This document shows, in pieces, positions 23,001 through 58,397 of a DNA stretch of 64,000 nt; the stretch's first letter is position 1, and every line of letters starts with the position of its first letter. The notes beneath the pieces are model-generated. The model did no database searches. It was not told the DNA's origin and saw only the letters and a program-made list of their open reading frames with translations. The position numbers and the translations under genes were made by a program. Origin of the DNA: Convolutriloba macropyga (lineage: Eukaryota); NCBI RefSeq assembly GCF_964194025.1, contig NC_134479.1:25358001-25422000 (forward strand), given 5' to 3'.

Positions 23001-26000
23001 TTGTCTCGGACCCACCATCTTTGTGGGCATAAAAATTTTACGCAACAGGTGCACTTACTACTTTTTATATGGTAACGTGTTATAAAACAACCCATAATTT
23101 GTAACTGGGGGTCATAAACAGCATGGGGGAAGGGGGGGGGGTTCGAAACAGAATATATTCGACAGTTTTCCGTTGTGTAAATAGTAGACTTTCAAGTAGT
23201 GTTACATGATTCTGGTGAAGTTACTGAGAAAATGTCTTTCGTCTTGGTCCAGTAGCGACGCGAGATCTCTCACAGAGTTGCTTCAAGTGCTAATCAGGCA
23301 CTATATAGGATGTGGCCTTGCAGATATCCGGCGTTTTAAAACTGGCGCTTGAGTGCTTCAAATATATGTTTAATTACAGGTTGTGCAGCAGATCAAGCAA
23401 GAGTTTGTCTCATCTAGCATTAATGTGATGGATGTGTTCTCCACAAATCGCATCGCTCCAGAGTTTTGAGTCACTTGATGACGAAAATGAGAGCAGAAAG
23501 GAGGCAGACAAATCAAATTTTTTATTTCTTTTTAAAGAAATTCAATTGATAGTCATTTAAATAATTTGCTATCAACTGTAGTTGTCAGATACGTTCAATT
23601 ATACGTCTTGGGGAAGCAATTGACAACTATCATTATCAGATAGGAAACACAAACACAAGCAATAATAAAATCTTCGAGATCTATGTCTCAACCCATAAAA
23701 GCATAAACTATTCGACAACAAAATGAACATTCAGTTTCGCCGTTTTTCATCGCGTTGCCTTCTTCCAGCTCTTCATTTCTTTAATTGGAGCTGTCAATAA
23801 TGTAATACTTTGACAAAGAAACAAAATGAATCTATAAAATTGGTAATTATTGTCCAAAATGAAAATTAATTGTGAACTCGTATCAAAACCAAGAAACCAT
23901 CAGTTAAATATAATACGTTACAAACTTTCACTTAAATCTCACAGTAAATGGGTTTTGGCCTATCTTTACTGAGACTACCCAAGAATTTGAGTCAGCGACA
24001 TTTAAATCAAATATTTTCAAGGCGTAAGAAACATTAGATAACAACTGAAGGTATTCTCTAGGTTTCTGTTTAGCTCCTAAAGAAGGCAGTCGAATCTCTG
24101 ATTGGCGAGACTAAGTCCTTGAACTACGAAAAGTATAACAAATGAAAGCATAGCCATAATTTTCTTACGAAAGTTTTTGCTCGAAGCAATAAAAACCATG
24201 AGCTTAACTCTTCAACCGTAATATTTTTTTCGTTGGACCTCATTTTTTGTAAATATCATCTGTCAATATTTAAGCCCTGATATGAGTTTCTTGTCAGCGA
24301 TTAACATAAAAAAAAATTACAAATGCGGAAATTTTTTTGAAAAAGGACCCCGCCCAAATAAAGTTTTATCGTAAGGATCCATGGTGGGATCAAAATTAGC
24401 TCTGATTTTTCTGCGCGTCTAAGGAAACACTTGATTGTTCAAATGGTTGCGAAATATGTCAATTTTTAAACATAATTGTTTAGTATATCAAAAATGAATA
24501 ATTCATTTTGTATAATTATCGAGTATTATACTTACAAAAAAATGGTGAAATTGTGATTTCAGTGTCTTTTGGGGCCAGCGGGAGTACAACTAGCTCTTTT
24601 GTGAGCTCACGAGGAATATGTGCGCAGTTTTTAGGTGTCTGTGTCCAGCAAATGTGAAGAAAGTTGCCTAAAATGCATATTTAGTCCCATTTTTGACAAA
24701 TTCTGATTTGAAAAATTGAGCTTAATTTCTAGCCAAAAAACTTGCATCGAACCCTCCTCTATCTTCAAGGATTACACCAATAACTGTACGGTTAACACTT
24801 TTAACATGTTTTGGCAAAATTGACGAAAAATGGATTACGAAAAGCTTGAACGAAAGCATCTTAAATCGGGCGAATGTTCACAAAACTTATAACTCCCTGT
24901 AAAAATTTGAAATTAAAACAATCTATTTAGTTCCATGCTCCACGGTGGACGGGCTTTCTAATGATACCACTCACAACTCTCTGCGATATTATATCGATCG
25001 GCCAAAATTGACTGAACAAATAAAAACCCATTTGAGTATATATTTCCTCCCCCACTAAAGTGGGTCGGAACAATAAATTTACGCTAATAAAGATAGGGTC
25101 AAAAAGCTAGATAAACGGGATAAACGTTAAAGGCTGGCAGAACGAGTGCAGTAAATTATCATGGTCCCTAGAGTATACTGCTAACTGTTATTTGTGTTAG
25201 CTCGTTGTCCTTCAATTTGTTGGCGGAATTCGCCGTGTTTCACAAATCTAATGGAACTGCGGACCATATTAGAACCCTAAAGCAATAAGTGGCAGCCTTA
25301 GTTTTTTTTTCATTTTCGACCTGATTCAATCCGAACGTTGATCAACGTTGGCTATTTTCTGGCAATCTACCTGTTATTTTTATTAATTGAGTAGCTCTTA
25401 AAGATTAAACCATGTTACTTCTTTTTTCTCGCTTTTGTACGAGCTGTGTTCAATCTTTTTATTCTGCGTTCATGTGGTTGACAATTTGGACTTATTGTCT
25501 CGGACCCACCATCTTTGTGGGCATGAAAATTTTACGCAACAGGTGCACTTACTACTTTTTATATGGTAACGTGTTATAAAACAACCCATAATTTGTAACT
25601 GGGGGTCATAAACAGCATGGGGGAGGGGGGGGGGGGGGGGGGGGGGTTCGAAACAGAATATATTCGACAGTTTTCCGTTGTGTAAATAGTAGACTTTCAA
25701 GTAGTGTTACATGATTCTGGTGAAGTTACTGAGAAAATGTCTTTCGTCTTGGTCCAGTAGCGACGCGAGATCTCTCACAGAGTTGCTTCAAGTGCTAATC
25801 AGGTACTATATAGGATGTGGCCTTGCAGATATCCGGCGTTTTAAAACTGTCGCTTGAGTGCTTCAAATATATGTTCAATTACAGGTTGTGCAGCAGATCA
25901 AGCAAGAGTTTGTCTCATCTAGCATTAATGTGATGGATGTGTTCTCCACAAATCCATTCAATTTCACAGTCAGGTTGTCCACAGCCGAAGAAGTACAGAT

Positions 26001-29000
26001 GGTCATCGACAGTTTCCACAAAAAAGTAGTCGCAGGTAAGAAAGGAATTGATTAACATCTTTATTGCATGGTGCATTTATGTAAAGAAAGCTTAGTAGAA
26101 ACATGGTAGAGCGAGGAAAACTAAACAGAATCTGTTGTTCGAAAATATTATCAAAATTGAATCAAAACTGCTTCTTATTGTAAGTTGTTGCTCAGGGGAT
26201 GCTGCACTGTTAGATATCATTGCATTAGTTTCTCGTGAACTTGGTCTTTTAAACAAACGTATTACGTATAATCTACACACGACGTGTTCACTAAATGCTA
26301 ACGACTTACGAGCAAAACTAAATTTGGATTTTCAATCGCAAATTATTTGCTTTAATATAATCCCTAGTGGAATATGGCTGAGAGAAGGAAACGAGACAGA
26401 TTCTTTTTTTCCTCAACTGTCCACATCGTGTGTATTTTAGGCTTAGAAATATATGTTAAAACGAAGACGCCCAAATCTGGACAGTTCCAAGTGAAGGTAA
26501 AGCCTGCGAACCCCAACGTAATGTTCGACTACGAGTTCTCAGAGGAGATATCCGAGGTGCTGAAGAAGATGGATATAGACGTGCACAACTGCAGAGGGGT
26601 CAGAGGTCAACTGGTCGAGATCAATCTGTACAATCAAGAGGACATTCCCAAGGTAAAAAACATTTCATATATTTATCATACATTTCAGTCAAGTTAAGCT
26701 TGCGTATATTGTAAGCAATTGTAACGGTAAAAAGGTTAAAAAGAACAACAATATAGTTTGCGCGCACGATACGCTTGATACTGTGAATGATAGGAAGTTC
26801 TGCTTGTTCTCAGTATACTTCGCTAAAAAGATCAAATTTTGACGAACGAGATAAGCTGTTAAAAGAGTTACCCCAGTGTCGACACCTTAATACTGCTTGA
26901 TGTAATGTTTAACACACTAAGCGTGCAAGTACGAAATGCTGGTTCGAAACCAGCAATATTTCATTTTCACATTATTTGAGTTTGTATAGAATCCCAAAAT
27001 GAACTTCACGAATAATTGAGTTCCTTAATTTAGTAACTATTGAATGCGGAGCAATAATGGGGATTTTAATTATCAATATATGCAAAGAGGCTCGATAATA
27101 TGCGTTTTCACCGACCCCGTTTATCCACATTTTTGGCTAATTGGCTACCAAATGAGGCAGAGATAGAAAACGTTCAAAAACATACATATCGTTTAACAAA
27201 ATCACTAATGGATTAAAAATAATGACACGTTTGATGGCCGATGAAACTTGCTGTTAATAGAACTACTAGAACAGACAATCATAAACATCAAATGACAAAT
27301 ATTAATTACGACCAAAACTCGACGTCTATATTTTAAAAAATAACAAAATTAAACTTCCATCAGATAAAACCTGAACAAAACAGATTGACCTATACTTCAT
27401 TAGAAAAGATATGGGACCTGTCTTCAGTGCGACTGGGTAGCAGGTCGACAATAACAGCAAAAAGTTGCGAAATTAAAAAAGTTCCTGTTTTTGAAAACAA
27501 TTAATTTCAAAGTGATTAAAATCGGTAGATATTAACTGAAATCACTAAAATGTTTATTTATATCTTCATAAGAAACAATTGAGACCATCAATTGTCATTA
27601 TCCAGTGTACGTCAGAAGACTACAATAAGAAGGACAAATACCGTTTAAATTAAAAAGTTTTTTAAACTTTGCGCTAAAATCGCAGTGACGCTGTTAAAAC
27701 CATAAGTTTGTCCTTAAGAACATTAAAATTGTTCAATTGTGGAATTTTTTAAAGCCAATGGGAGCGATCATTAATGTTATAATTTAAAAAGAAAAGGAAA
27801 ATCCTATAAATTTTACAAATATATAAGAATCATAAACAATTTATGAATCTTGTAACAAATTCGAGAAACAAATGGTTGCAACTGAAGCCGTTGAAGATTA
27901 AATTACTGCTAACTGGCAAAGTTCTTATTCCAGAAGACTGTTAATGCCAGCTGGAGTACAACTAGCTCTCTTTCTGAGCATACGAAGAGTATATCCGCAG
28001 TCTTTAGGTGTGTACTTTCAGTAAATTTGAAGAAAATGGGTTTAAAATGCATATTTGGTCCCTTTTTTGACAATGTCTGCATTTTGGAAAGTTTAGCATA
28101 TATTCTAGTAAAAAAACTCGGATCGAACAATTCAGCAACCCTCCTTTATCTTAAAAGATAAAGCCAATAACACTACAGTTAATAATAAATTTTTAGAAAA
28201 AGACGAAAATTGGGACAAATTAAGGAAAACTTGGAACGAAAGCAACGTATTTCGGAGCACAAAACTTAAAATCTTGATGTCTCCCTGTAAAATACAAAAT
28301 TCAAAAAAATGTTTTTCATATTCTGCGCTGGACGAACTTTCTAAGTTCAAATTCTGCGCTGGACCAACTTTCTAAGTAGTGATACCACTCACTACTCTCT
28401 ACTATGATTATATTGATCGGCCAAAATTGACTGAACAAAAAATCCCATTATGACGATGCTAAATTTTGATTGGTTGAAAAAGACTTTTGTAAATTCATAC
28501 AGCACGCATTTATTATCTTGAAATTCATATAGACGATTCTGCTCAGTACAGTTCAGTTGCTTACTAAATTACTTGAATTGAAAACTTGTAGCAGAAAAAG
28601 AGCGTTTTTACCGAACCCGCGCTCCGAATAGCACTTAGCAAAAACTTGCAATTAAAAGCCTTTATTAGAAAGGATATTGCAACGGTAACTCGTCTTCATA
28701 CAATATAGCACTTGGCACTAGCACCTACACAGCCGCCTCTAAAAAGATAGAAAAGGTAGAAGCAAATTAAGAAGAGAGTTAACTCATGGAATTAGCCATT
28801 AACGGAAAAACTTACAATCTTCGAATCATTAGAAAAACAAACACCGGAATTAGCCTTTATTTTATCGCACAAGAAGACAATCAAACCGATATCAAACGGA
28901 TCCGTATTACAAAAAACTCAGAACTTTACAATTTCTCTCAAAACTACCGAATTCGAGAAATTAACCAAACAACAAGCACAAACCAACTTTACCCATTCAA

Positions 29001-32000
29001 AATTATTTGAGCATCAACCTCTTTGTTTTGCTAGCAAAGAGAAAATACAACGCAAGCCACAACAGTACTTCTATGACACTATTGGAAGGCTATCATACTA
29101 GAAACCCGTTCGTATTCTTCAACGACAAAACAATCGACAGAAAAGTAAGTCAAAAACTTGCAGCGAAGAACAAAAAAGACCAACCAAATAGCCTAAACTG
29201 CAAACTCTGTGACACAGCTAAATTGGAGAAACGCACAAATTGCTCTTTCCACAAAAACACTTCAACAACAAACTGACTAAAGGAACATGGCAGATCCAAG
29301 TCCGCCTCACGTACATCTGAAAAGGTTCTCAGGACTACCAAACGAAAACTGGCCTGAATTTGAAGGACTACTGAGAGCAAACTTTGCTGTATCTAGAATT
29401 CCTGAAGCGAACCACCAACGTGCAAGATATCTTCACCTACACTTAGCCGGTAATGCACTCAACTATTACCTTCGACTCGCCGAAAACACAAGAAACGATC
29501 TAGACGATTCGCTTGAACAACTACGCAACCGATATGCAGGAGCAGACCAAAGAAGAAACTTTGAGCTCGATCTGCAATCGAGACAGTTCGATCCAGTGAA
29601 AGAACAACCCGATGACTTCCTCACAGATCTGCAACGCCTCGCCAACCTCGCAATTGTGGACGATCCTGCAGCTCACATAGACCGCACTGACGAAAGAACA
29701 AGACGAATAAGAGAACAATTCATTCAAGGCATGCCCTTCAAGTACAAGAAAGTGTTGCTGAGAGAGAATGACAACATCACTGTAAACGAACTATGCGCTA
29801 TCATCAAACGACGAGTCAGAATTGATCAGATAAACCCCGAACCACAATACACCACGGCATTCAATGCACTAAACGCATCAGGAAATCCTGCTGTGGCCCA
29901 AGCCATAGAAAGCATAATGGCCGCCGGCATAGCATCAATGCAAGTAGCACAGCCACCGCATCAGCGCGTGGAGAGTACTCAGTACCCTAGCTACAGAAGA
30001 GGAAATAACTACAGAGGCTACAACCACAACAGACAAACATACCAGTATAATGGAAACCAAAATGGCCGAGGATACAGTAACAACTACAACAGCAGAGGAC
30101 GTAACCGTGGAAGCTTTCAGAGAGCCCGAGGAAATTATCCGAGAGGAAGGTCAAACTTCCAACGAAACGACCGAAGTAATGGACGTACCGAAAGATCTCC
30201 TACACCAATGAGAACATTTTGCAGAACATGTGCTAGCAATGAGCACACTGCCCGAGATTGTCCAGAACGTCAACCAGCATACCGCGATGGAAACATGCCA
30301 TTCATTCAGCAATCAAAAAACTAAATAACCTGCATGTTTTTCTACAACATATACCAGATAGCATGACAAACTATAGCGAAAATGTATTCATAATACCTCT
30401 GCAGTTCGAAACATTAATAATGAAAGCAGTAGCAGACACTGGAGCATTCAGCAGCGCCATGTCAAAGAAACATTTTGATAAAATAAGCAGAAACCTCTAC
30501 CAAAAACCAGAAAAAACAAATCCTCCTGAAATAAACGTTTCTACAGCTTTCCTACACCAATCACCCATTTTATTTACAGTCCAACTGACATTCAAAATTG
30601 GCCATTTACAATTTGAGGAACAGTTCATGGTGTTTGAAACACTTTCCGCTATCCTTCTTGGCTTTCCCTTCTTTGATAAAAATGAGATTATTATTGATGC
30701 CCACAACAGACTACTCCAAACACCAGAATTTACTTTTCAGCTAAATCTAATGCACATAAAAGGCAACAACAAACAAAAACGTCTCAACAGCCGAAAAAAA
30801 ATCATGCTCAAAACCAAAACAACCTATACGCTATCACCTGGGGAACAAAAATTTCTGGAACTAATCCCATTGGAGGAAACTGATGCACAAGAACAAATTG
30901 GACTCGTAGAGCCTACTGTCAAATTTGAAAAACTGGGCCTTGGTCTAACAAGCACGCTTGACAAACTTACAAAAAACAAAACTACCACCCTACTTGCAAT
31001 CAATACAACAGAAGTTCCACTGCACATTAGACAAGACTCTCCAGTAGCAACATTCGAAATCATCACACCAGAGCAAGCACGCTACCTGATACCACTTGAG
31101 CCAAAACTTCTCCCATCAAGCGACTCAAAGAAAACAATAAAGCAAATAGAAAAATCTATAGAGAGAACAGCAAAAGGCGAAATAAATCATATAACAATAA
31201 CACACGAAAACGGATTCTGGTTTCCGACCCCAGAAACCAATCCCGACACATCGAAGATGAGTGAAGTTGAAAAACGCATATATGACGAACTTGTTAAATT
31301 TAAAAATCTTGAAGCAATTCAACCACTCTCGAAAAACGAAGACAGGAAAACTTTTCTTAACGCATTCAAATGGAGCGACAGCGTACTGTCTGACAAAGAT
31401 AAAGAAAGAACAGAACAGCTTCTAGTCGAATTCAATGACATATTCACAAGGCACCGCCTTGAAATTGGCTACACTCACAAATTCTCAGTCAAATTGACAC
31501 CAGACACAAACAGACCTGTATACTCAAAAACTCAAAGAATTTCAATCCATCTCAAAGACGATTTGCTTATTGAACTAGCCCTTCTCCAGTACTACGGAGT
31601 CATAACAACGCTCCCCTTCAGCCGCTACTCATCTCCAATATTTGCAAAACGGAAGCCAAACGGGAAGCTCAGAATATTAGTAGATCTAAGAAAAATGAAC
31701 CATCTCGTTAGAAACGACTACAACAATAACAACTTCCCGATAGCTACACTAGCAGATGCGGGCACCCACTTAGCCGGCAAGAAACTCTTTTGCAAGATGG
31801 ATGGCAGCCACGGCTACTTCTCTGTACCAATGGCAGATGAACAATCAGTACAGTCACTGGCCTTCAACTTCGCATCGAGAACATATGCTTTTCAAAGACT
31901 AGCCCAAGGACTAAGCAGAAGAGTCAGCGCCTTTAGCTCATTCATGCGTCAAAACCTGGACCCCGTGATAACAGCGGATAAATGCTTTCAGTACGTCGAC

Positions 32001-35000
32001 GACATTGGCATCGGAGCACATGACACAAACGACATGTTGGAAAAACTTCGAGCAGTCTTTACATGCATCCGAGAATCAGGAATGAAACTCGCAACAGACA
32101 AATGCGCATTTGGACTCAGATAAATACAATTCCTTGGTAATACGATAACCTCTGAGGGTCTCACACCAATTACACAGAAGATTACAACCTTTCTGAAAAC
32201 ATTCAGAATGCCGCGAAACCCAAAACAAGTCAAACGAATGATCGGATTTTTTCAATTTTACAAAGCCTTTATCCCTGAACTTGCTGAAAAACTTTTACCG
32301 TTCTATCGTCTACTTAAGAAAGGCACCAATTTCGTGATAGAAGAAGAACACCAAGTTATGCTTGAAAAGCTCACAAATGATCTAAGAACAGCCTGTGACC
32401 TTTCACTCAGATTACCCAAAAAGTTGACCAGCAATATGTAATAATGGCTGATGCATCCTTTTACGCAGCCGGATACGTACTAATTATGGAAGACTACACA
32501 ACAAATGATGATAATCAGGAACTGAAAATTTATGCACCCGTCAGTTTTGGATCTAGAATTTTCCACCCAAACCAACTCAAACTTTCGATATATGCGAAAG
32601 AATTCCTCGCAGTTCACTTTGCCCTAGATACCTTTGCAAATATTATATGGGGATGTAAAAAACCAATTCTCATTTTGACAGACAACAGATCAGTAACCAG
32701 GTTCTTTCAAACAAAAATCATACCGCCAACACTTTGGAATGCTCTCGATCATGTACTCAGCTTCGACATCATACTGGGACACATACCCGGAAAAGCCAAT
32801 TTAGCAGCGGACTATCTGTCGAGAATACACATAAACCCGAAAGAGAAGCTCGATCTACGCATCAACTCACGCATACCGATGCACGAAATCGAAATCAACA
32901 CAGCAGCAGATACACCTGACAATTCAATCAGTTATCTGAGCAGCTCAGAAAATGACGATACCCCCAAAATTATGAAAACATACTTACTTGAGAGAAAACA
33001 AACCAGCGGAGAAGATCCTATGAATGTTCGAGCTGACGTTCAACTGCAAATTCTTTCACCTGCAACGCAACAAATAAACGCCATGCATGAACAAAACCCA
33101 TTGGATGAATTCATCACTCATGGGCACGGACCTTTAGATCTGCGTGCCGAACAACAACAAGACAAAGATATCAAACGGGTACTGCTCTGGTTTGAGAGAG
33201 GTTCACCGACTACAGGACAATATCTATCCAGTGACCTAAAAAAGTATCTCAAGCAGTTCCCAAGACTATCGATAACAGAAGGCGTCCTTCATCGCAAGTT
33301 CTATAACCACACTGGAAACCAATTTATTAAACAATATTGCGTCCCGTCGCACTTACAGAAGGAAGTACTCTACAGAATTCATAACAGTGTTTGGAGTGGG
33401 CACAAAGGAGTCTCACTGACAATAGCAGAATTTAGAAAACGATTTTACTTCCCGAACTTCACTGAACGCCTAACAGAATATATCAGAAACTGTCTCACAT
33501 GCTTGCAAACAAAACCAGCACCAATATCTGCATTGAAACCCCATTACAACCACTTTCGTCTCTGCAGAACTTCCCAGCAGACCTTTTACTAATAGATCTG
33601 GTGGTAAAGATGCACCCTTCTCCCTACACGTACATTCTCTCAGGTATTGACGTGTTCTCGAAGTACCTTTTCGTCACACCTCTTATGTAAGGCGACGCAG
33701 ACATCGTAGCACGAGCCCTTGTCTCAACTTTTCTGAGACACTCCTACATTCCCTCAAGAATCATATGTGACCTTGGAACTGCGTTTACTTCCGAATTAAT
33801 GAGCGAACTAGCAAACCTATTTGAGGTAGAGCTCAAACATTGCACACTGAAACATGCGCAAACCATTGGCTTACTTGAAAGAAACCACGCACCGCTCAAA
33901 CAAATCTTGAGAATTAACGAAAACCAAACTTCCTCGGACTGGCATAGATACGTTGACATTGCAGTATTTATACACAACACAACATTTGCACAAGCTCTTG
34001 GGTGCACGCCATCTGACGTCTTTCATGGCAGAACACCGATAAATCCTTTGGACCTCAGATTTCAGAATACAAAATTATGGGAGTCTCACCCAAAATACGA
34101 CTGCATTAAAGAGCTACAAGACAAAACTACGGAGCTTTTCTCCAGCGTAAAAGACAACCTTATCTCGTCTTATCTGAAATATAAAAAGTACTATGACAGA
34201 AAAGCCAACGCCACACCACTAAAACCCAAATCATACTGCCTGATCCTTGACCCAAAAAGCACAACACAAGTAGCAGTGATCAATAAACAGCAAAGCAGGT
34301 GGATACCATTATACAGAGTAGAAAAATTGCTCATGAATGCAAACTACATTGTACGCAAAACCAACACAAATTACACGCAATGTATCCATCGAATGAGACT
34401 TCGACCTGTGAAACCTCAATATCAAATAGAAGACCTCGAACATGTAGACCCAGAAAACTTTGAAGCAGATCCCACCATACCAGAAGAAGAGAGAGAACCA
34501 CAGCTGTTCGACAACCAAGTCAGGCACCACATTAACGAAGACAACATGCAGCTACCCAGTATCTGCATTGAAACCCCCATTACAACCACTTTCGTCTCTG
34601 CAAAACTTCCCAGCAGACCTTTTACTAATAGATCTGGTGGAAAAGATGCACCCTTCTCCCTACACGTACATTCTCTCAGGTATTGACGTGTTCTCGAAGT
34701 ACCTTTTCGCCACACCTCTTATGAAAGGCGACGCAGACATCGTAGCACGAGCCCTTGTCTCAATTTTTCTGAGACACTCCTACATTCCCTCAAGAATCAT
34801 ATGTGACCTTGGAACTGCGTTTACATCCGAATTAATGAGCGAACTAGCAAACCTATTGGAGGTAGAGCTCAAACATTGCACACTGAAACATGCGCAAACC
34901 ATTGGCTTACTTGAAAGAAACCACGCACCGCTCAAACAAATCTTGAGAATTAACGAAAACCAAACTTCCTCGGACTGGCATAGATACGTTGACATTGCAG

Positions 35001-38000
35001 TATTTATACACAACACAACATTTGCACAAGCTCTTGGGTGCACGCCATCTGACGTCTTTCATGGCAGAACACCGATAAATCCTTTGGACCTCAGATTTCA
35101 GAATACAAAATTATGGGAGTCTCACCCAAAATACGACTGCATTAAAGAGCTACAAGAGAACCACAGCTGTTCGACAACCAAGTCAGGCACCACATTAACG
35201 AAGACAACATGCAGCTACCCATAACAACACCAGATGTCCAGTCAGTTTCTTTCAACTCAAACATCCAAACAGCAAATTTTTCTTCTGAAGACCCGCCAAT
35301 ACAATTTCATGATATGACACACGAACCGACGTTTGACCAAGATGCATTCTTCTTGGAAGGCTCAGTTCCAAGCGCAAACACGCAAGAAACACCAGAATCA
35401 ATTGATACAGGAGACTACGTCTTCTCAAACAACTCAAACTTCTTACCGTCCGACAGTCGTTTTGGCTCAAATCGACGATACAACCTTCGCAGAAATGATC
35501 ATCTGGCATTGGCCCGAGAACTCGCTATATAACCTCTTGCAACCATCAGAAAAAGCAAAGGAAGAACAGGTCAAAGTAATAACTTACTTCCCACTTGACC
35601 ACATCCCAGACCCAAACCTGACAATTGATACAACAGAAACTGATCACGATGAGAGCATTGCAGACTCACAAGCAACAAGCTCACAGTCGCGAAACCAGAG
35701 TCTCAATGACTTCACGTTCGATTCACCTGAAAATCTTGGCGATCTATTTGATGACGTTAATAGCCCCGTCTACACGCCCCCAATATTAGACACTACAGGC
35801 GAAACCTTTTACCGGACCAACTCGATCAACGATATTTACAACAATACAACCTCAAGCAATGATGTCCAACAACCGAGATCCGACGAGAACAATGAGCACT
35901 CCCTTATAGGAGGCACCATTTCACAAATTGAAAATAACGAAAGCAATAGTGCTATTGCTCAACACGACAACCCAAGAACATCTTCACCACTTCCTCAAAG
36001 AGTATCCAACAGAGAACTAGCGGACCTTGGCCCAACGCTTCAAAACAGACGGAGAATTGTTCCGCTAACACTTCACCGTCGGGAGATCAACGGAAACCTT
36101 CACCAAACTTTTGGCTTCGAAGATGACAGCCAATAGGAATTGAGCACCAATTCTCTATTATACATACACATTAGATACGTCACCAACCAATGAAAACACT
36201 CCAAAAAAAAATCCTAATTTAAAAGGAAAAAAGACACAGCTCAAATCATTTTCCAAAATTTTGTACCTCAAAATCGGTCGCACAAAGACTCTGATTCAAT
36301 TTCACAAACAAGCCTAGTTAGCAAAATGCTCAATATCGTACTATTTTTACTACAACTTTTACCATTGATGAAAACGAACCAACCATCGGTGGCAACAAAA
36401 GATGGAGTATTGTTCAACCTTCACCAGAAAATTCTATTGACAGAAAAATTTGTCAAAACTGAAATCCTGGTCCCCTACCCAATATATAACAAAACAGTGG
36501 AAGACAAACTGATCAACCTGACAAAAGAGATAGACAAAATGTGGACTTCAGAAAATCATGGATGCCCATTGAACTTCACAAATATGACTGACTCGACAGC
36601 AGGCCTCCACTGGATAGCGCAACAAACAATGATAGAAAACCAACAGGCCCAACACGACATTGTAAACCTCAAATTGGAAATGAGCACACTACTAAGAGCA
36701 AACAGTCAAACTTCTACAACACTGCAAAGACAACCCCGCGGTGCGACTGCCGCAGCAGCAGCAGCCGCAGTGCTGGGAATTGGAATAGGAACAGGCGACA
36801 AAATACTATGCTTCATCAAATCAGTGTTTGGAGGATGCGACGAAAGAGTGGCTAGAAACCAGAAAAACATCAGACAAGCAATGGCTTATCTTCAATACCT
36901 AACCGATCATGTCAAACAAATAACAATCCAAAATAATGAAAAATTCTATGTTGTATCAGGTGAACTGAAAGCCATCAAAGAAGCCCAGAACGAAATAATA
37001 GAGACACAAAACAGGAACTGGGAACTTGCTGAAGGACAATTCAAGGCGTTACGACAAAACGTGCACCACATGAGAAACTGCATCCAATACTTATACGTAA
37101 GAGAACAAATCAATCAACATAGTCTTGTACTTAGCAATATTTTTCAAGCAATACTTGCTAACATCAAAACATACCGATCGGCCCTTTATACGTTTCGAAT
37201 CAACATACTGAATGCCTTGACGCCTCTCATGAATCAACTATTACCAATGTCATGAGTCCCAAGGGAGCAGTTGCATGAAATTCTTACGATTGTTCATTTG
37301 CAACAAAATGGACAACAGGATCGATTTGCTCTAGCCGTACCAATTCAAGAGATTCTCTCGTACTATGAAACGAAATTAGTCACACAAGTCGAGGCAATTG
37401 ACGCAGGTCTTATACTTACACTTGCAATTCCAATGGCTTCAAAAAGTACAGTTGTGAACGTATTGCATGCCATTCCGATCCCAATGCCGGACGGGGATAC
37501 GGGTAAGGCTTTAGTTTGGTGACTTGAAGCCAAATACATGGCCCTCTCAGACGACGGAGAAGAACTAGCGTTTATCGATGAAGACGAGCTCGAAAATTGT
37601 ATCGGATCCCAAAAATACGCAATATGCACCAAAGCCATTCCAACAGAACAGACTTATCGGTCCTGTATGGCTACTTTACTTTACCACGATGACGAGCTAC
37701 TTGCATTGCAACGCTGTCAACTGGATGTAGTAGAATTGCCGTTGACTGAAAAAGCACGCAATCTCGGCTTCGGTCGTTGGTTAATAACATCGTCCAAAGA
37801 CGATTATACACTCATCGAAAGCGCTGGTAATGGCAGCAATCCATTGGCAAGAATTGAGCATCCTGGGTGCAGAGTGTGTATCATCACACTGGGATGTGGA
37901 AAACAGCTTAGAGGACCAAATGTTCATCTTCGCTCAGACCTCACTGCTTGTGACACAGTACCGGCAATACGGTTAGATTTTCAATTACCAGATCCAATAA

Positions 38001-41000
38001 GTACACTCTTCAAACTACTGCCCCCATTGGATGAACTACCAAACTTCTCATCAAGATCTGAGGCACAAATTCATATTCTTCAGCAAATTCAACCAGAGTT
38101 TAAACAAATGGAAACACGACGAACAAATAGCAAATCAATAGAACGAATGGCCGAACCACTTTTAGAAAGAATAAGAGCATTCAAGCCCGAACTCGAACAC
38201 CGATTCGAACAGTACATACCATGGAAAATGTCTCTTCTTTTCGGATTTTTATCCTTCTTGATTAGCGTATTACTACATCTAACTTATTTGCATCTTTTAC
38301 ACAAATGGGCAAAACTTCACCGACGTTTCCCTTTCCGAATAACACACGAAGGACGGCGAATAAAAACAAAACCAGTACAAGTTGTCGCATTAAATGACTA
38401 TGATTACCTACAAGAACATCCAGAACATCCCCTGCACAAATGCTCACTAGTACTACCACTCGAAATTAAAACTGAGTTCGAAAACCAAAACGAAGAAAAC
38501 ATAAATAAACCTCGCACTCCTTACACATTCCTAAGAGACTACATCAGGAGACTAAAACGTAACGAAGAACCAACTATCAAAATTGATCATGTCAACAGGC
38601 CTGCCGCACCGAGTCAGCCCATCTATACACATATACCGGAACAACCACCGGTATCCCATTACGGAGCGTACCCTCTCAGAACAATCAATACAGGAAACGT
38701 TTAAAAAAAACCTGACCGGGACTCGAACCCTCAACTTCAGCATGAGAGTGCAGCGCGCTACCAACTGCGCTAAGTGGGACGGCCGCGTGGTCCGTAAAAA
38801 CAGCTTATAAATAAAAAAAAAAGAAAAAAAAGTTAAATTTTTTTACCCTTCCCCTCTTCTCTTCCCCCTTACCCTAGCTTACCCTTACACCCCTTTGCCC
38901 TTTCCCAGATTTTCCCACATTATGGAAGCACCAGGAACCCGCCGGGATTCGAACCCGGAACCCCAGCTCAACGGCCAGAGATACTAACCACTGAACTAAG
39001 TCACTTGTTAAAAGTTATCAATTACATTCACTTCTACTCTGCCGCAAATTAGAAATTTTGTGTTAGCAGTGAGCAAGGAAAACAAAACTTAAAAATAAAA
39101 ATTAAAAAAAAATTTATTAATTAACAACATTTATAATAGCCCTAAATAAACCAGAGAGACCTATCCTCCATCTGGAAAGTACCTACCATTATATTTGCGA
39201 AAACTTAATTCAAAATTTTGATATTACTCGTGTATTAAACCGAAATTTTCATTACTTGCAATTATTCTTTGAGAAAAATCAACAAGGAAAAATTACAGAG
39301 CAATTCCCCTTAAACCTCCGTTGTTAAAGGCGGGGATTTGCTCCCTACCTTTTTATCCAGCGACGAATTTATTTTTAAAAAAGAATTTATACTGACGCAC
39401 TAAACAACGGAGTAATAAGATGCGACTCCTAAAGGAAACTTATCAATTATCTGTCAAAGCGAGAAAAAGAAGGAAATCCATTAACCCGGAAGGCGAACTG
39501 TCTATCAATCACAATGACAGCCTATAATGGAACACTAATCAATCCAACCAGGGATAATTCCCCACAATCCCAATTAATCAAAATGTCAAATTTCCCCCAC
39601 TTCCCCCGCAACACTATCAATCATTCAAACTACTTTCTGCCTGCTAACTACCAGCAACACTCTTCATTGCTAACTGTTCATTCTCTCAACCTATTACAAT
39701 TTCTTCGCGGATAGAAACTTGGAAATTATTTCAAACAACTTAAACAATTTTCCTACAACTAAAACTTTACCTTTTGCACTATTTCAAACATTTTATAATG
39801 AATCCAGTATATCACTTCAGAATTAAAGTTGAGCCGCGCATTAACACTACATTCAACGGCCAGCCAGCTTATATTACTGAATACAGCATTGCCTTTTTTA
39901 CAGATCGTGAAGCAATAATTAGTATTAACATGCAACAGGACAATATTGTCAACAATATTTATTCAATTTCTTTTATCCCCCTTACAGTGAATGAGACATC
40001 AGCCGTATGGCAAACAATTCTACAATGCATACAATCGGGAAATAATTATAATAATGGGAATTTCTATCTTAACTCAGAAGGAGAACCAGCTGCAGTAGAA
40101 CCATCGCAACCAACCATTTCTGAAAGTCCCGACAGCCCTGACCCTACATCAGACCACAATTCAACTGAATTAAATAATATTCCAATTTCTCCCCATCACC
40201 CATTCCATTCTCAGATGACTCTATGTAAATTTCCTCAAATATTTGCATTTCTTTTCCATTAAAAATCTTATCTCATGTCTTATCCACCAACCCCAACTTT
40301 CACCACAATTGACCAATCAGAAGACACCATTCCTTACATCTCTCCAATTCCAACCCAATTTCCACTTTATGCTTACTTTCTCACTGATTTTGATATAAAA
40401 CTTGCAGTCTTTTCTGAATACTGCATAAATAATCAAGACAAAAAAATCACTTTGGAACCAGATCATCCAAATTTTCTTACCTTTTTGAATTTCTTACAAA
40501 ACACCAAAGAATTTTTAGAAGGCGAATTTGACCTGTAATTTCTTTTTTTTAAACCATATTTACTTTTTCTTTCCCTGATATTTCCAAATCTCAAAACCTA
40601 GCAATTCTGAATTTTCTTAAAAATCATGACAAGCAACTAGGACCAAATCCGAAATTACGTCGGCCCAGAAGACATCGCCCCAAAATTACACACGAACCAC
40701 AACATCAACGTTTGCGTGAAAGTAGGAATCCAATACAGGGAATGTTTTTGCAATGAATATGTCATATTACAAAATAGAACCATCGTGATCTGGGCACACT
40801 CCCATACAGGCCTTCTCACGAAAAAATGTTTTTTCTACACAACCTGGGAATACTACACCTACATTTACCACTTCATTACTTCATCCCAAGGTACCCAACT
40901 CACCCACCAATTCTGGGATTTTATTCAAATGGACAATGACGACCCCATTGAGTTTGACCCTGTTGGCATCCGTGTATTCACTTAGACTTGCATAAACTTC

Positions 41001-44000
41001 TTTAATTTTTTTTATTATTCGAAATATTTTTTTTAAATCTTTTCTCTCATGAGTCGCAATTAATTTAATGTAGTACTTATTTTATAAACACCGCAAATTA
41101 TTCAAATGTAACGCCTCCTCTTCTTATTTTTAATTTCTTACCAATTTATTTTTTTTACTTCTGACCAAAAAAAAAATTACTCGTGAGTCATAACTCGTGA
41201 GCACTATTATTGACCAATCTATTCCCAACCTTTATCAACAAAAATTAACATCCCACCTTGTTATCACTTCGAAGGGCACGCGATTGAAAGTCAAAATGTT
41301 AATTGCTTACACTACATACGACTGTGCAAAGTAACGACCCAAAAAACTCACGAAACATCATTTTTTTTCCAGAACAACACCAAACTAACACAGACAGGAC
41401 CCTTACCGATTGCCCAGTATCAGCAAAATAATCCTTTCAAAATACGTTGAAAGGGCACGGGCTTGAAATAATAAAACCTCAAAAAAAGAAAAAAACCTGG
41501 CAGTATAGTTCCAACCCTAAAAAAAATGTAAATTAAAGTCGAACAACTCACTTATTCCATTGAAGGATCCTTTGGAGGAAGAAACGAATACACAATATTC
41601 TCGTTCGATTGCGTTTTCGTTTCCCGTTTCCCACCCCATTTTCTTCGATTACCTCGTTTGTTATTTGTTTTCAAAATTAGACCACTATTAGCGAAACTTT
41701 GCACATGCTCAGTCACATCACTAGCACCACCAGTTGATACTTCTCTTTCTTTCGCCCAGTCTAACACTGCCTTTTTTTTATTTGATATTACAATTCTTTT
41801 TACCGCACCTTTACGCACACCATAAGCAAACGATCCCAAAGTCCGATCAACAACAACTTGATTCGATTGATCAGGCGCCTCCCAGCCCGTCACTAACGAC
41901 AAACCTTTTGTAAAAGTTAAAACAGCATGCGCACACAACGAAGGCTGGCACAACACATTATCTTTCGTCGGAATGAAAAACCAAACATCCTTTCCCAAAC
42001 CACTTGCAGAAGGACCCCTCTTAATTAAATCCATAAAATATTGCGGAGTACCCATAACATTATTAAAATCCCTTGATGTCTGATAACTTCCACAAATCAG
42101 AAACAATTTCTCACCACACGGCGTTTTCGAAACACTATCATTACCCCCAATCTCAACATGTGCCGCCGTCCACCACTCATTCCATTGTACCATGGCATCT
42201 CTCCTTACACCAGTAAAACCATCAGGCAAAACACCACTCATCAAACCATCCACACAAAACGTCAAACCTATTGAATTACACAAACCAGAATACGACCCAA
42301 CTTCTTGATACAACCTGCTATCACCAATCTCCAACTTTAATTTACTAACATAATTATACACATCGCCCTGATCTCTACAGCCCCGGAACCCTTCTGCTAA
42401 ACTTTCTTGTAATCCCACAATTTCTTCATTATTTATTGCCAATGGTACCTTTGGCCAACCATTCTCTCCAACCAGTCCCCCTCTAATTTCTTACCAATTT
42501 ATTTTTTTTACTTCTGACCAAAAAAAATTACTCGTGAGTCATAACTCGTGAGCACTATTATTGACCAATCTATTCCCAACCTTTATCAACAAAAATTAAC
42601 ATCCCACCTTGTTATCACTTCGAAGGGCACGCGATTGAAAGTCAAAATGTTAATTGCCTTTCAATCGCGTGCCCTTCAATTGCCTTTCAATTGCCTTTCA
42701 ATCGACTGTTTCCACTTCTTTCCATCCGAGACTTACTAATTTTTTCCGATCGTAGTACTGATGTTTGAACTCCTTCATTTCGATTAGCAAATCTTGTCTG
42801 CCTCGTGTCGTTCTAAACACGATAATTCTGTAACGATAAACACGATAAACACAAAAAAAATTTAATGCTAGCCTATGAAATCCTAAATTGTTATAAGTAA
42901 TTAACGAACCTTTTAGTGTCCATACTTTGATAAAATACAATATCCCGTCTCTTCGTTATTACAATCGTTTTTGCAAAGCTTCGATAAAAGATCCAACAGT
43001 CGATGAATAACGCCGCTATTAAAGTTTGACCTCTTCGCAGTAAACGTATTCTGAATAACTTTATCACTAGAGCAGTCAATCACACTGTTCTCAATTTACT
43101 TTCCTCCAAAACTTCCATTAGTGACTGTCAATTACTGCCATACCGAGGGAATTACTTCCGAAAACTCCATTAGTGACTGTCAATTACTGCCATGTCGAGG
43201 GATTTACTTCATTACTTTACTCCCCTCACAACGTGGAGCAAATGGAACTGCCACACTTGACAGATCACTACTACATTAATCTTCCTGGGAAAAATGCAAA
43301 TAAACCCGAAGAGATTATCAAACAACTGTCTCACTGATACAAAATCTAATGAACGGCCTCCCACTCTAACCTTACTCAGAAGAAAAAGAAACTATTCATC
43401 ACTTTATCTATTCAGTTCCACTTTTATTTTTAACAGCGAAGAAAACGGCAGCGAAGTAAACAAAACAAATGAACTATCAGCCTGACCCCCCACAACTCTT
43501 CTCCTTCGACGGGCGGCTCGCCCTGCTAATAAAAATGGGCATACTAGAGACGCCCATTTACCGCACTTACGTGCAAATTACATACGTTTGGCAGGGCGAG
43601 CCCACGAACCTGGACGTACTGAGAAAAACAGCCCTCATACCAAGACGAAGCAGACTTATGCCTCACTTAAGGAGAGTTGTGGGCGGTCAGGAGGCCCTAA
43701 ATCTACAAATCGAGCCTCACCACTACGTAATCAGACATTTTTAATCTATTTTTGTACAAAACTGCACGCCTTTATTTTTCTAATGCATGCTTACTACGCC
43801 TGCCACGACCAACACGAACATCATTGAAAGACTTGGCAAGAATCGAGGACACAAACCACCAATCCCTCCATCACCAACTGGACAAATATGGCTCCGATAT
43901 GGCACGAAACTCACATCCACTTGGCCAACGCGGAATGTAGTATTCTTTTCACAACATACAGCAGTCGCGTTCCCCAGCTCAATTTCTTCGCATACATGAG

Positions 44001-47000
44001 ATGAGAAAACAAAAGGCCACAAAAGAGCAAACAGAAAGTAAACTTTCAGCATTTTGATCTGGAATACTCAATAAAAACTTAGAACAAACCACTATTGATG
44101 TTGCTTTCCATTTATACTTAATTAACCCAGTAAATCCCTTGACTTTGGCAATACCACTAATCAAGACCCACTTGGCACAGCACACTAGGCAACCCTGTTT
44201 ATAATCATAAGATTAAAGGTTCGAAACCCATCGCCTCCGCTTTTTCTGAAGAGCCGTAATGTGACGATGCTAAATTTTGATTGGTTGAAAAAGACTTTTG
44301 TAAATTCATACAGCACGCATTTATTATCTTGAAATTCATATAGACGATTCTGCTCAGTACAGTTCAGTTGCTTACTAAATTACTTGAATTGAAAACTTGT
44401 AGCAGAAAAAGAGCGTTTTTACTGAACCCGCGCTCCGAATAGCACTTAGCAAAAACTTGCTCTTAAAAGCCTTTATTAGAAAGGATATTGCAACGGTAAC
44501 TCGTCTTCATACAATATAGCACTTGGCACTAGCACCTACACAGCCGCCTCTAAAAAGATAGAAAAGGTAGAAGCAAATTAAGAAGAGAGTTATCATACCC
44601 ATTTTAGCATATAGCCCCCCCCCCCCCCCCCACCGCCCCTCCAAAGTTGGTCCGAACAATTAATGGACGTCCGTCCAAGATGTGGACAGTTTTCTGAGAT
44701 ATTAAATGGAGTGTTACTTGGAGAGGCAGATTTGACCTGTTTGACGGCGGACTTTCAGACGGTATTTCATTTAATAATTTCTGTATATTGCCATGGAGTC
44801 ATGCGCGCCTACGTATAAAAATGGTGAATTTTCAAATATTTTATAAGAATTTGGGCATATTATAAGATTCTATTATATCATTTGTATCTTAATGATTCTT
44901 CAGATCGAAAAACTCAATTATGTATTTTTATCTGACAACTTTTTCAAACCTAAAACGAACTTTTTCTGGACTGTTTAGGTCCTGGAAAAATTCAACAACA
45001 CGAACTTCGGATTCATCGATATTGTTGCCGAATCACACGTTGAGTCGGAGGCAGACGACAAGACGGCTTCGTCATCTTCGGCAACTTCAGAATCGACTGA
45101 GAGTCAAAATGGAGAGATAAAAACTGAGACAGAAGATTCCACTGAGACGTCAGGTATTGGCACTTTTTAATACTCATCTTGCAGTATCAAATTTAGTTTT
45201 AGTTGTTAAATATAACCTCCTGTCTTATATCTGAGCGCAATCATGATTACACGCGAAAGATTTCAAAGAAAAAAAGTTGAAGAAAGATTCCAAAAAAGCG
45301 GGCCGCATTGGAGCCTATAGCTGCGCAGTTGGAAACGTAGACCACATAGAAGAATTTTTGACCAACTATTCTATGCCCAACTTTCTATCCGTGTCTGTGC
45401 CAACTAACCTCGAGACAATGCATGCCATTTAATAAGTTAATTATTATGAACGTGTGTTTTGAAATTTGTTTTGAATAGTTATTGTGTTCAGGTGATGCCT
45501 CCAGCACAACTGGCAGTGATAAAAGCAGTCAGGAATCTGAGAATCTCAGTTGCGAGCCGTTCGTGTTTGCGGCAATGAAGACCAGCTCAGATTCATTCAC
45601 TCCAAAAAATATGAAAATTTTATGCAAGGTAATAAAAAGACTCAATGTTCTACCGCACTAGTAAAGTCCAATAAGTATTAATCTAACTATTCAACCTTCG
45701 GTGAATAATCGGTAGAATTTGTTGCTGAATTTTAATTTTGGGTCCTAGTGAACAAGGATAATTGGTTCTAATTATTTGGTTATATTATTTGTCTGATAAG
45801 GCTGCAATTAAGAGTAGCACGTTTTATATTGAAGAAAGATCAAATTTTGAATGTTGTGAAGGTTTATTATTATGTGATGATGATTTTTTGGTCATGAAAT
45901 CAGCAGCTCAATAGAACGCCATTTCGTTACAGGCTTTCGAGCAGGAATCTATAGAAGTTTCTAGAAGCAACACAGCATCTGCTGGGAAATTCGCATACTT
46001 TTTTGTCAAATCCTGGGATGACGTGGAGAAATTCCTGAACAAATATGGAAGCAAGTTAATTAACAACATGATGATCAATTTTGAAAAGGGGTCAAGGAAG
46101 AGCCCATTTATGCAGCAGAATTCGGCAGAACAGCAAAACAGGTAAGACTAAATTTGTTTCGCCAGTCGAGAAAAATAGGACTATATTGAAATTCGGCGAT
46201 CGATTTGACTACTTGAGAGCCGTTCAAGGCGGCTCAAAACGCGCGGTTCTCAGAAGGAAACGAGCAAAAATTAATTGATGACACAAACTTTAATCACATG
46301 GCTGACTCTAGTACTTTGCAAACCTAATTATTGCTGAATGGTAATCAAAATTGGTTTAGTAGTCCGAGAACTGTTTTGTAAACGTAATTTTGCGAATTGA
46401 TAAGCTCACAGTTAAAAAATAAAAAGTTCTCAATTGGCAGAAAAAGCCAACAGTTTTTGTGTTTAAAAGCAGCAAAGCGATAACTGGGGTTATTATTGGC
46501 CTTACAATTAGGGTGGTTTTTCTTACAATTAGGTTGCTGCCTTCTTCCGACTCGAAGATGAGTGTCGGTTTTCTTGAGATTTTTTTAAACCGGAAGTAAT
46601 ATTTGCTCACACGGCGTTTTGAACTAAAAGCGAAAATAAGTAAAATTGCAGTGTCGACCAATTTTTTCTAAGCCGGAATTTTTTCTTAATCATGTCTGGC
46701 GTTCAGTGAATGACCTATTGACTTTGAAAAGTGTTTTTCAGAGAATTGCGCATATAGATAACCGTTTTAGCCGTTTTTTTGTCCTTTTTTGCTAACTTTT
46801 TTGCTTTGTTTGGTGTTTTGTAGATGCTGATAGTTAATTTTCGATTGATGCTGCATTCAAATGTAACCATCTGAAATTAATATCACAGTATTTTTAAGAA
46901 TCTAATAAAGCGTTTCAACTGCAAAATGGCACATATTTCTCAATTACATTTAAATTTTGTTTTTGTTTATTTTTTTGGACATTTGAGAGGTCTGTTTTTA

Positions 47001-56800: not shown

Positions 56801-58397
56801 ATGACTTCTGTGACTTCTACTACTATGCAGTTAAAATTTGTCCGCGTGACATCATTTCTGCTTTTAGGTCGATATCGTGACTTACCTCACTCAAAAAATG
56901 ACTTCTGAACTCACTTATGGAACTTCATTTTATGAACATTTACTAGTTAAAGATCAATAGTGTGCATCTAAGTAGTGCCACACGTATATGCCCGAATTCT
57001 TGAATATTAGTATTGAGTTTTTGATTTCGAAATTCAATTTTGAAAAAGCTCTTTTAGGGTTATGTGTATTATAGAACGTATGTGTATCATAAAAATGACA
57101 GTACATATCTAACCCAAAAAAATCTAGTGGTCTACTAAAGGACTTTTGGTCAATCTGCCTATCTTGTTTCTTTAGTTGTTGCAATTCATGGAAGGCCACA
57201 AGCGTCTATCGCGGCTATTTTCCGGCAACCTGCCGGCTATGTTTTGATTAAGAAACCGAGTGTTCGCATTTAGCTGTCAAAAAATGCATCAAAAGTTAAG
57301 CACTGAGTAATTAAAGGATTTTTAAAATTCCGGTTTGATTTTTTGAAAAATATTGGTTTGGTTTTTGAAAAATATCGATGCAAAAAGAAAAATCTGTAAA
57401 ACTGCCGAGTATATTTGAGCTCAAAGTGTTTTTCCTATTTCTCAAAGGTTGTAAAAAATTGTTCCGTTAAAAGTGTACAATACCAGCTCATACGATGGCC
57501 TCTCGTCGCTTGAAATTATGGACGGTTTAGTCGACATTTACCTTGCAGATTTTAAATTCTGGACCAATGAAACATCATTTAAACTAGCCAAGTGCAAAAA
57601 CTATCCCGAGGTTGCGAGAAATGCAATTAAAGAAATGTTTCGACAAGTTGGCGATTTAGTCTTTGATGAAAGTGGCCTGGCGAAACAGGGATTAATTTTA
57701 AGGCATTTGGTCATGCCTGGACTAGAGGATGAGGCCAAGCTGATTCTCGATTGGGTAGTCAGTGAGATATCGAAAGATACGTATATGAATTTAATGGAAC
57801 AGTATCATCCTGATTTCAAAGGTAGTAAGAATGGTTTTTATAATTTCATTTCACATTGGTATTTGTTAATTTGTTATTTCTCAGTGATAATGGAGTTCTT
57901 ACTTCCAAATGAAGCATTGCGAGGTCACGGAAATAAATTTTTTGAAATCCCGAATAAAATTGATATCGCATCCGGTTTCGGTGCACCTTAAAATCTTTCA
58001 GTTATTATTTCACCGTTTTAAATTAAATCTGCTAGATCTGTCACATCGGTTGAAAGAAAACAAGGACTCTGAATTGCCTATGGAAAGATGCGCTGAGTTT
58101 CCAAATCTTTGATAAACAAATCTACAAATGTCAAATTAAACAAATTTAAATTTAGCATCTGTTCGAGAACGGTCGAACTTCAAGTGTAACAGTAAAAGGT
58201 GGCGATAAAAAAGGGGTTATTATAACGTGGAGATTGTTTTAGTGGGAAAGCGGGAGTTGCGTAGTCGAATCGGCTACACCAACTACGAGGAAATTAACAG
58301 ACCAGTGACGGAGTCAGAAGTAGACTCACTGAGACAGTATGCTAGGAGTATTGGATTGTGGAGATTCGAACATGACAATTTGCCCGCTTATTTATAA
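50837..58397 (+). CDS. PflX-type radical SAM Fe-S protein (PFL-activating-enzyme-like family), 353 aa. Exons 50837-51105, 53832-54121, 57474-57821, 58243-58397
   Basis: CRACPRNCDVNR...C, AFPHFGEE, GSGTIFFGMCNLRCVFCQNWDIS (CxxxCxxC), HNINFVTPEH, PIVYNTSSYD, VDIYLADFK, LRHLVMPG, NLMEQYHP, EINRPV and GLWRF. Exon phases agree and the CDS totals 1062 nt. Confidence 0.9.
51327..51750 (+). mobile_element. Diverged family A Helentron-like copy in intron 1 of the radical SAM gene
   Basis: TTAATTGCTCTCAAA ... AGCTAGCTACAGATGAAGCC ... GTCGTTTGAGGGCAATTCACCC. Confidence 0.55.
54632..55168 (+). mobile_element. Helentron-like non-autonomous element, family B
   Basis: AATAGCCGC (54634) and GCGGCTATT (55133) form subterminal inverted repeats. 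Hairpin CCGGCA-ATC-TGCCGG and a T-run follow. Confidence 0.65.
56142..56668 (+). mobile_element. Second family B copy
   Basis: Full-length match to 54632-55168. The same 3' end motif also occurs at about 57211 and 59857. Confidence 0.65.

Follow-up and report, generated by a model that had tools for sequence, protein, structure and literature searches.

Animal retrotransposons are commonly viewed as passive targets of silencing based on PIWI-interacting RNAs (piRNAs) and histone H3 lysine 9 methylation (H3K9me). Why, then, would a retrotransposon carry a gene for a predicted chromatin enzyme? The question is raised by a 64,000-nt stretch of the Convolutriloba macropyga genome (contig NC_134479.1, positions 25,358,001 to 25,422,000; hereafter the window), in which a Ty3/Gypsy element with an envelope gene (env) bears a JmjC gene on its minus strand. 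The original prediction, made from the letters of this stretch, held that the gene and nearby tRNA-like A/B-box units could form a portable barrier-plus-eraser module against heterochromatin. Our analysis leads to a different account. A clade of envelope-bearing Gypsy elements carries an old antisense cassette of two genes, and we assign a probability of roughly one half to the reading, drawn from sequence and structural models, that its predicted oxygenase is an element-encoded histone demethylase countering silencing.

The antisense oxygenase gene and its partner

In the window, the main part of the JmjC frame lies at 41552-42490 (minus strand), and a separated 5′ part at 42701-42830 (minus strand) is cut off from it by a 217-nt insertion specific to this copy (42484-42700, made of a copy of 41131-41306 and an inverted piece). 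Sister copies encode a protein of ~360-390 aa. As a single sequence it has no match in Pfam or the PDB. A search of 1.84 billion representatives returned 213 relatives at E 0.001 or better, and we built a profile from an alignment of 73 sequences with 18-56% identity. All nine matches of this profile in the PDB are PHF8, PHF2 or KDM7 (best E 0.004). The Pfam JmjC cut-off is not reached, with weak matches in 4 of the 73 members (best E 0.0098), and the family is overlooked by Pfam.

The predicted fold gives the same nearest relatives. An AlphaFold model of a natural relative (P0001, pLDDT 89.5) has ceKDM7A as its best Foldseek match (E 5e-9), together with hJHDM1A. VIA, run against 48,161 chains, puts KDM7A, PHF2 and KDM2A in its first four positions, at Z 14.0-15.5. 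The match to KDM7A (Z 15.5, root-mean-square deviation 4.8) aligns 268 residues over model range 1-339, the helical C-terminal part included. The sequence T-x-x-H-x-E is found in 35 of 37 JmjC rows, as is the distal His (35/37); H167, E169 and K184 are invariant in at least 90% of the 73-sequence alignment, and the iron triad, the Thr and the Lys are its most conserved positions. C-terminal tails of these proteins are basic (17-26% K+R). Taken on profile, modelled fold and conserved residues, the antisense open reading frame (ORF) is a predicted JmjC-fold Fe(II)/2-oxoglutarate oxygenase, nearest to KDM7/KDM2, that keeps its iron- and 2-oxoglutarate-binding residues. The JmjC gene named in the original prediction is thereby verified.

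The gene recurs across the host genome (1.18 Gb), which holds at least 128 matches to the antisense JmjC ORF. Of 103 reverse transcriptase (RT) matches with at least 85% identity, 92 are followed by a JmjC match 2-20 kb downstream; without exception, the 94 linked matches are antisense. When elements were chosen by RT alone (60-86% identity), seven of ten carried JmjC. An apparent count of 0 of 38 for RT matches at 72% identity or less proved to be an artefact of scoring best candidates only; such lineages do carry the gene. Among elements chosen by JmjC (ten from subfamily A, that of the window copy, and ten from subfamily B), env, small ORFs and antisense JmjC follow in identical order in every one of the 20. 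A trait of the family, the accessory region is neither unique to this locus nor made of nested insertions, two of the three outcomes that the original prediction had named as damaging to it.

In lineages A, B and C, JmjC follows env; E, G and H have it between pol and env; in I it comes after pol, and env was not seen. The gene is retained in sister lineages whose pol is ~42% identical. Elements D and F are without the cassette, and one B-type copy has a deletion there. The co-occurrence in constant order that the original prediction proposed to check for is found in part: JmjC is family-wide, the B-boxes occur in subfamily A only (below), and the position of JmjC shifts from after env to between pol and env.

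Descent of the gene follows that of the elements. An RT tree built from elements of this genome alone and a quick JmjC tree agree on the grouping of lineages (Mantel rho 0.74, n=29, p 0.001, kin not being independent); L095 and L100 were left out of the JmjC tree, L099 has no RT row, and F and D have no JmjC. Between A and B, identity is ~73% over protease and RT, 70% in gag, 81-83% in env and 50-56% in the JmjC ORF, for which the nonsynonymous difference (pN) is 0.32 and the synonymous difference (pS) 0.77-0.79, which is saturated. JmjC is an old family trait, passed on vertically with RT under purifying selection. The host genome holds an ordinary KDM2/7-type gene of its own, and no similarity to the element profile was detected among the host JmjC genes (six JmjC loci and one JHD locus; best E 0.019 among six frames), which argues against a recent capture.

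Beyond this genome, nine metagenome contigs encode JmjC relatives at 26-35% identity. One of them (L104) has env, a SEC-like ORF (see below) and JmjC in the element layout, and another (L106) a SEC-like ORF and JmjC, the JmjC being ~26% identical in both; the remaining seven are short, with JmjC alone visible. In IMG/VR, 56 pattern matches yielded 0 confirmed cases. Remote relatives with ~20% identity on short ENA/Logan contigs (P0094, P0120, P0124, P0149, P0158) keep the motif. In lineage I the HxE motif is lost. Lineage E has a second antisense ORF of 234 aa between SEC and JmjC (L068:1784-2485, minus strand), with a weak match to the JmjC profile and no HxE, which is possibly a dead JmjC paralogue.

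The constant partner of JmjC is a second antisense gene, SEC, absent from the list of the original prediction. In the window it is a 90-aa ORF at 43780-44052 (minus strand), upstream of JmjC, with a signal peptide, a C-x(9-15)-CC...C pattern and a C-terminal hydrophobic helix. SEC-type genes encode cysteine-rich, predicted membrane proteins of 70-100 aa in which the C and CC are invariant. They accompany JmjC in lineages A, B, C, E, G and H and at 20 of 20 further diverged loci, all 20 of which have the order pol(+), JmjC(-), SEC(-), env(+). Neither a fold nor a family was found for SEC (Atlas matches ≤0.84; model pLDDT 70.6; best Z 6.4, helices only). Its discovery also revises the orphan ORF array described earlier: the small sense ORFs are real in part, and the conserved gene near the 3′ long terminal repeat (LTR) is on the minus strand, not the plus strand.

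Seven of 8 SEC starts have a site resembling a splice acceptor 2-10 nt ahead of them, and so does a start in 7 of 12 JmjC frames; among sense ORFs 1 of 24 has one, and among background ATGs 124 of 1888 (6.6%). The rule for such sites was set after inspecting the sequences, and the SEC site of the window copy just misses it. The acceptor-like sites suggest spliced or trans-spliced antisense mRNAs. G-type elements have env on the 3′ LTR side of the cassette, so that their promoter would be internal or their first intron long. In four such elements (L073, L075, L088, L092) a donor-like GTAAG or GTAAA also stands ~15 nt ahead of the acceptor-like site upstream of SEC, a gap too short for a usual intron.

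Readings of the cassette

If the oxygenase is a demethylase, we propose that SEC and JmjC would be expressed from a spliced or trans-spliced antisense mRNA of the cassette's own, since acceptor-like sites stand just before both start codons. The basic tail would carry the JmjC enzyme into the nucleus. There it could strip repressive methyl marks in trans, namely H3K9me2 and H3K27me2, the substrates of KDM7 enzymes, and keep proviruses expressible; SEC would act at the cell surface or on particles. A broader picture falls somewhat short of even odds: an ancient animal retrovirus-like clade with a second, antisense, spliced mini-genome that would encode an active histone demethylase acting in trans and a surface protein, in which lineages would swap, move and extend the cassette like the accessory genes of complex retroviruses.

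Several observations weigh against a demethylase. In the VIA search JMJD5, TYW5, JMJD6 and FIH follow at Z 12.8-13.6, within 2-3 Z units of KDM2/7 (the margin over JMJD5 is ~2 Z units), and several of these enzymes are hydroxylases, not demethylases. Identity to KDM7/KDM2 is 11-14%, with TM-scores of 0.38-0.44, and two KDM7 active-site aromatics, the Phe after HxD and the Tyr of VWY, are replaced in the alignment. The protein stands alone (369 aa, JmjC match 1-339), with no PHD, CxxC, F-box or other reader domain, which leaves targeting of its own provirus unexplained. Finally, 11 of the 103 close RT matches have no listed JmjC, and element D (L065/L066), with an RT nearly identical to that of lineage E, has no cassette and has LTRs that are 100% identical over 302 nt. 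From element D, the cassette is dispensable in cis.

Some of these points also speak for the best-surviving alternative, which we nevertheless hold to be unlikely: that the cassette is a unit of host manipulation or immune evasion, its JmjC protein an active oxygenase whose substrate is not a histone (it would hydroxylate proteins, or act on RNA or on a defence factor) and which is expressed together with a surface protein. The constant partner SEC is a predicted membrane protein rather than a chromatin factor, the JmjC protein has no reader domain, its active-site aromatics are unlike those of KDM7, and the hydroxylase-type folds score close behind KDM2/7. However, the profile and both fold searches put KDM2/7 first, the helical C-terminal region aligns with KDM7/KDM2 and not with JMJD5 or TYW5, and the basic tails suit nuclear import or nucleic-acid binding.

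A role without catalysis is a more doubtful proposition still. The fission yeast JmjC protein Epe1 is described as anti-silencing without enzymatic activity (PMC7192584), and by this precedent the element protein could be a non-catalytic, chromatin-binding anti-silencing factor. The lost HxE of lineage I and the degenerate second ORF of lineage E (a weak match) would fit. We judge this improbable, as conservation across the 73 sequences is highest at the iron triad, Thr and Lys.

Slightly less probable again is the module of the original prediction, in which B-boxes bound by TFIIIC would flank the accessory region as barriers and cooperate with JmjC as a portable barrier-plus-eraser. The accessory region contains three A-box/B-box units, each followed by a T run, against 0.0 in the shuffled region. 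Unit 1 (38705-38775, minus strand; B-box at 38729) is tRNA-like and ends in a T run, unit 2 (38830-39005, minus strand; B-box at 38955) has a purine-rich body and a T run, and unit 3 (44173-44245, plus strand; B-box at 44218) is A/B-box-like. The tRNA-like units described at both ends of the region therefore exist, as tRNA-like heads and not as tRNA genes: ARAGORN returned 0, the tRNA score in Rfam reaches at most 24.2 bits where the gathering score is 29, and there is no full cloverleaf. An origin as tRNA-derived short interspersed elements was likewise rejected. Across the genome, unit 1 has 45 exact 32-mer matches, of which 43 have a JmjC match no more than 9 kb away and the other 2 have RT matches within ~6 kb, so that all 45 copies are at element loci; unit 2 was judged from its 40 best matches.

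That the units bracket the accessory region in subfamily A (3 of 3 elements), are element-specific and have perfect B-boxes speaks for a barrier. So does bovine leukaemia virus (BLV), in which recruitment of RNA polymerase III (Pol III) accompanies active marks at the silent provirus (PMC4992882). Yet the units are missing from 11 of 11 elements of B, C, E, G and H and from 20 of 20 further 10-kb JmjC loci, units 1 and 2 being found in subfamily A only, and the B-box of unit 3 aligns with a subfamily-B site that lacks the B-box consensus. Even among A elements, conservation of the units does not significantly exceed that of the spacer (7 variable sites in 135 against 139 in 1543, p 0.15 for the heads; p 0.27 for the boxes). 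Because elements outside A bear JmjC without B-boxes, the parts are not conserved together and the portable module fails. By sequence comparison, subfamily A acquired the A/B-box units late, and a barrier role limited to that subfamily is possible.

A reading of the accessory region as neutral hitchhiking sequence, captured or nested, is almost certainly wrong: elements D and F are without the accessory cassette and the window copy is broken, but the region is retained across lineages at synonymous saturation, pN stays well below pS, the catalytic residues are invariant, and the seven host JmjC loci show no detectable resemblance to it.

Relation to known elements

The env gene (36326-38704, plus strand, 792 codons) is predicted to encode an F-type (class I) fusogen. 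A signal peptide, an RxxR site, a hydrophobic fusion peptide and a transmembrane segment can be read from its sequence, and the env of a sister copy matches Fusion_gly/Baculo_F clusters in the ESM Atlas (0.92, 198 of 256 features). Sequence and profile searches of Pfam and the PDB gave no informative match for env, and none of its 18 homologues is named; among the best 120 RT homologues one is named ("hypothetical protein"). With a glycoprotein-F-type env after pol, the elements fit the operational errantivirus definition of PMC13524379. Between A and B, env is more conserved than gag or protease-RT (83% in L049 versus L033).

They share with the F-type errantiviruses of that study LTRs, a primer-binding site (in sister copies), the order gag-pol-env, an F-like env with a furin-type site and fusion peptide, and multiple copies; they differ from them in the antisense SEC and JmjC cassette, ORF0 and the small ORF array. 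"JmjC" and "antisense" have 0 occurrences in the main text (Chary and Hayashi). Its LTR rule drops spacings above 14 kb, which places the 16-kb A elements outside the survey, and shorter G-type elements could sit unannotated in its tables.

As a protein, the oxygenase resembles the KDM2/KDM7 enzymes (JHDM1, PHF8, PHF2, KIAA1718) in its fold with helical C-terminal region, its T-x-x-H-x-(D/E), its Lys and its distal His. It departs from them in the low identity given above, Glu for Asp, the two replaced aromatics, the missing PHD, CxxC and F-box, and a score below the Pfam JmjC cut-off. Enzymes of related kinds are borne by other mobile genomes. Endogenised giant viruses of Amoebidium carry KDM4-like genes (10.1101/2024.01.08.574619), likewise stand-alone JmjC proteins without reader domains in an integrating parasite. 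There, however, the carrier is a DNA virus, the type KDM4, introns are kept and 39% of insertions have the gene, whereas here the carrier is a retroelement and the gene KDM2/7-like, intronless and antisense. Fungal DNA transposons carry TET/JBP dioxygenases (PMC12730594), again transposon-borne Fe(II)/2-oxoglutarate enzymes of eraser type proposed to counter silencing; these act on DNA bases, and according to the paper none is in retrotransposons.

Other retroelements resemble these in layout. Plant Retand Gypsy elements (PMC11963269) have a long region from pol to the 3′ LTR, conserved antisense ORFs and tandem amplifications, yet their antisense cargo, TRP28, is of no known function and has no enzyme fold. 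BLV (PMC4992882) combines type-2 (A/B-box) Pol III units with antisense transcription in a provirus, a resemblance that holds for subfamily A only; it is a vertebrate deltaretrovirus with a Pol III microRNA (miRNA) cluster, whereas our elements have tRNA-like heads, no miRNA shown and an antisense strand that encodes an enzyme. Bdelloid LTR retrotransposons (PMC5408684) are invertebrate Gypsy elements with captured accessory ORFs; their ORF3 types are env, DEDDy, GDSL, CC and TM, and in the accessible text "JmjC", "dioxygenase" and "demethylase" have 0 occurrences.

Env-bearing Gypsy elements, plant antisense ORFs (PMC11963269), giant-virus JmjC genes (10.1101/2024.01.08.574619) and DNA-transposon TET enzymes (PMC12730594) are each already described separately. 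Literature searches, which took in few subscription papers and neither Repbase nor the supplements of PMC13524379, gave no account of a JmjC gene in retrotransposons with env or of the Gypsy type. If the demethylase reading is true, these elements encode a histone eraser in animals for which we found no published report. A KDM7-like enzyme with intact catalytic residues across an envelope-bearing clade would be a candidate counter-defence, assayable as a single protein, and invertebrate errantiviruses may, the cassette suggests, match complex retroviruses in gene richness.

The window copy and its surroundings

The element is bounded exactly at 28449-44597 (16.1 kb) by a 5-bp direct repeat, CCCAT, the target-site duplication (28444-28448 and 44598-44602); sister copies also show 5-bp duplications. 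Its 5′ LTR (28449-28781, plus strand) and 3′ LTR (44260-44597, plus strand, 338 nt) are 99.1% identical across 331 nt, and ~60 nt comprising the last bases of the 5′ LTR and the primer-binding site are absent from this copy. LTR pairs of the copies are mostly 98.5-100% identical, which indicates young families. The LTRs of A, B and C start with TAT and finish with ATA instead of TG...CA (window 28449 and 44260-44597; L021-L064), and C, unlike A and B, has a clear purine-rich tract ahead of its 3′ LTR.

On the plus strand follow ORF0 (28786-29010, 74 aa, no family assigned), gag (29287-30324, 345 aa, with a zinc knuckle at its C-terminal end, E 0.004) and pol (30363-36136). The latter has the domain order protease, RT, RNase H, integrase, with a weak protease match (E 0.012), and a long tail. 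From the env stop (38704) to the 3′ LTR (44260), the accessory interval measures 5.56 kb. The original prediction's coordinates and its ORF0, gag, pol and env are thus verified, as is its estimate of about 5.5 kb for this interval.

Its suggestion of a potentially infectious element fails for the window copy, which is broken in pol (a stop and frameshifts), env (two in-frame stops), JmjC and the primer-binding site, does not have an intact gag-pol-env and cannot be infectious. Open gag, pol and env frames are present in sister copies, where pol frames stay open up to 1744 aa. Also specific to the window copy is a duplicated integrase sequence (34556-35221, plus strand) from 33521-34124 and 34492-34558. 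A miRNA-like hairpin at 42620-42679 was rejected as a product of the copy-specific insertion in JmjC.

Four small sense ORFs are annotated in the accessory region, all on the plus strand. The first, s1 (39798-40262, ~145 aa), is retained in both A and B, with a dN/dS of 0.2-0.4 wherever this could be measured. It is followed by s2 (40275-40538; 102 aa in sister copies, 87 here; dN/dS 0.20-0.38) and its paralogue s3 (40626-40985; 119 aa in sister copies, with an early stop here). Both s1 and s2 are under purifying selection between A and B. The kinship of s2 and s3 comes from hhalign (s2 versus B s3 96%, versus A s3 84%; reversed controls all below 1%). The fourth, a91 (43469-43744), occurs in two versions, ~35% identical, inside subfamily A. 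Three further frames, without homologues beyond A, are doubtful: one of 93 codons at 39433 and two on the plus strand, at 43787 and 43828.

One or two ORFs of 80-100 aa occupy the slot before gag in B, E, G, H and most G-type loci; for homology of A's ORF0 to these, hhalign stays at control level. A single paralogue family of ORF0 and all small ORFs was considered and rejected: the s2/s3 pair alone holds, and ORF0a versus s2/s3 scores below 5% in hhalign. ORF0 and the small ORFs match nothing in Pfam or the PDB.

The accessory region also varies between copies. Tandem amplification of the small ORF array or the JmjC block, to three to four units, is seen in L041, L045, L046, L077, L078 and G000:C6:30432401-30445473. 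Subfamily B is mosaic (L021, L023, L033): its JmjC gene comes in two versions that are 64% identical and its small-ORF array in two forms, in mixed combinations. The env genes of L021 and L033 are 99% identical. In sequence, the mosaicism points to module swapping.

Outside the element, the window holds a near-identical duplication at 20967-25929 with a spacing of ~2.5 kb, and a tandem array of four 749-bp units with ~99% identity at 59711-62365, with shorter relatives at 52-59 kb. Open frames at 4770-5987 (minus strand), 9660-11159 (plus strand) and 57455-57988 (plus strand) we take, by eye, to resemble a non-LTR RT, an exon of an organic-anion transporter and a radical-SAM-like exon, respectively.

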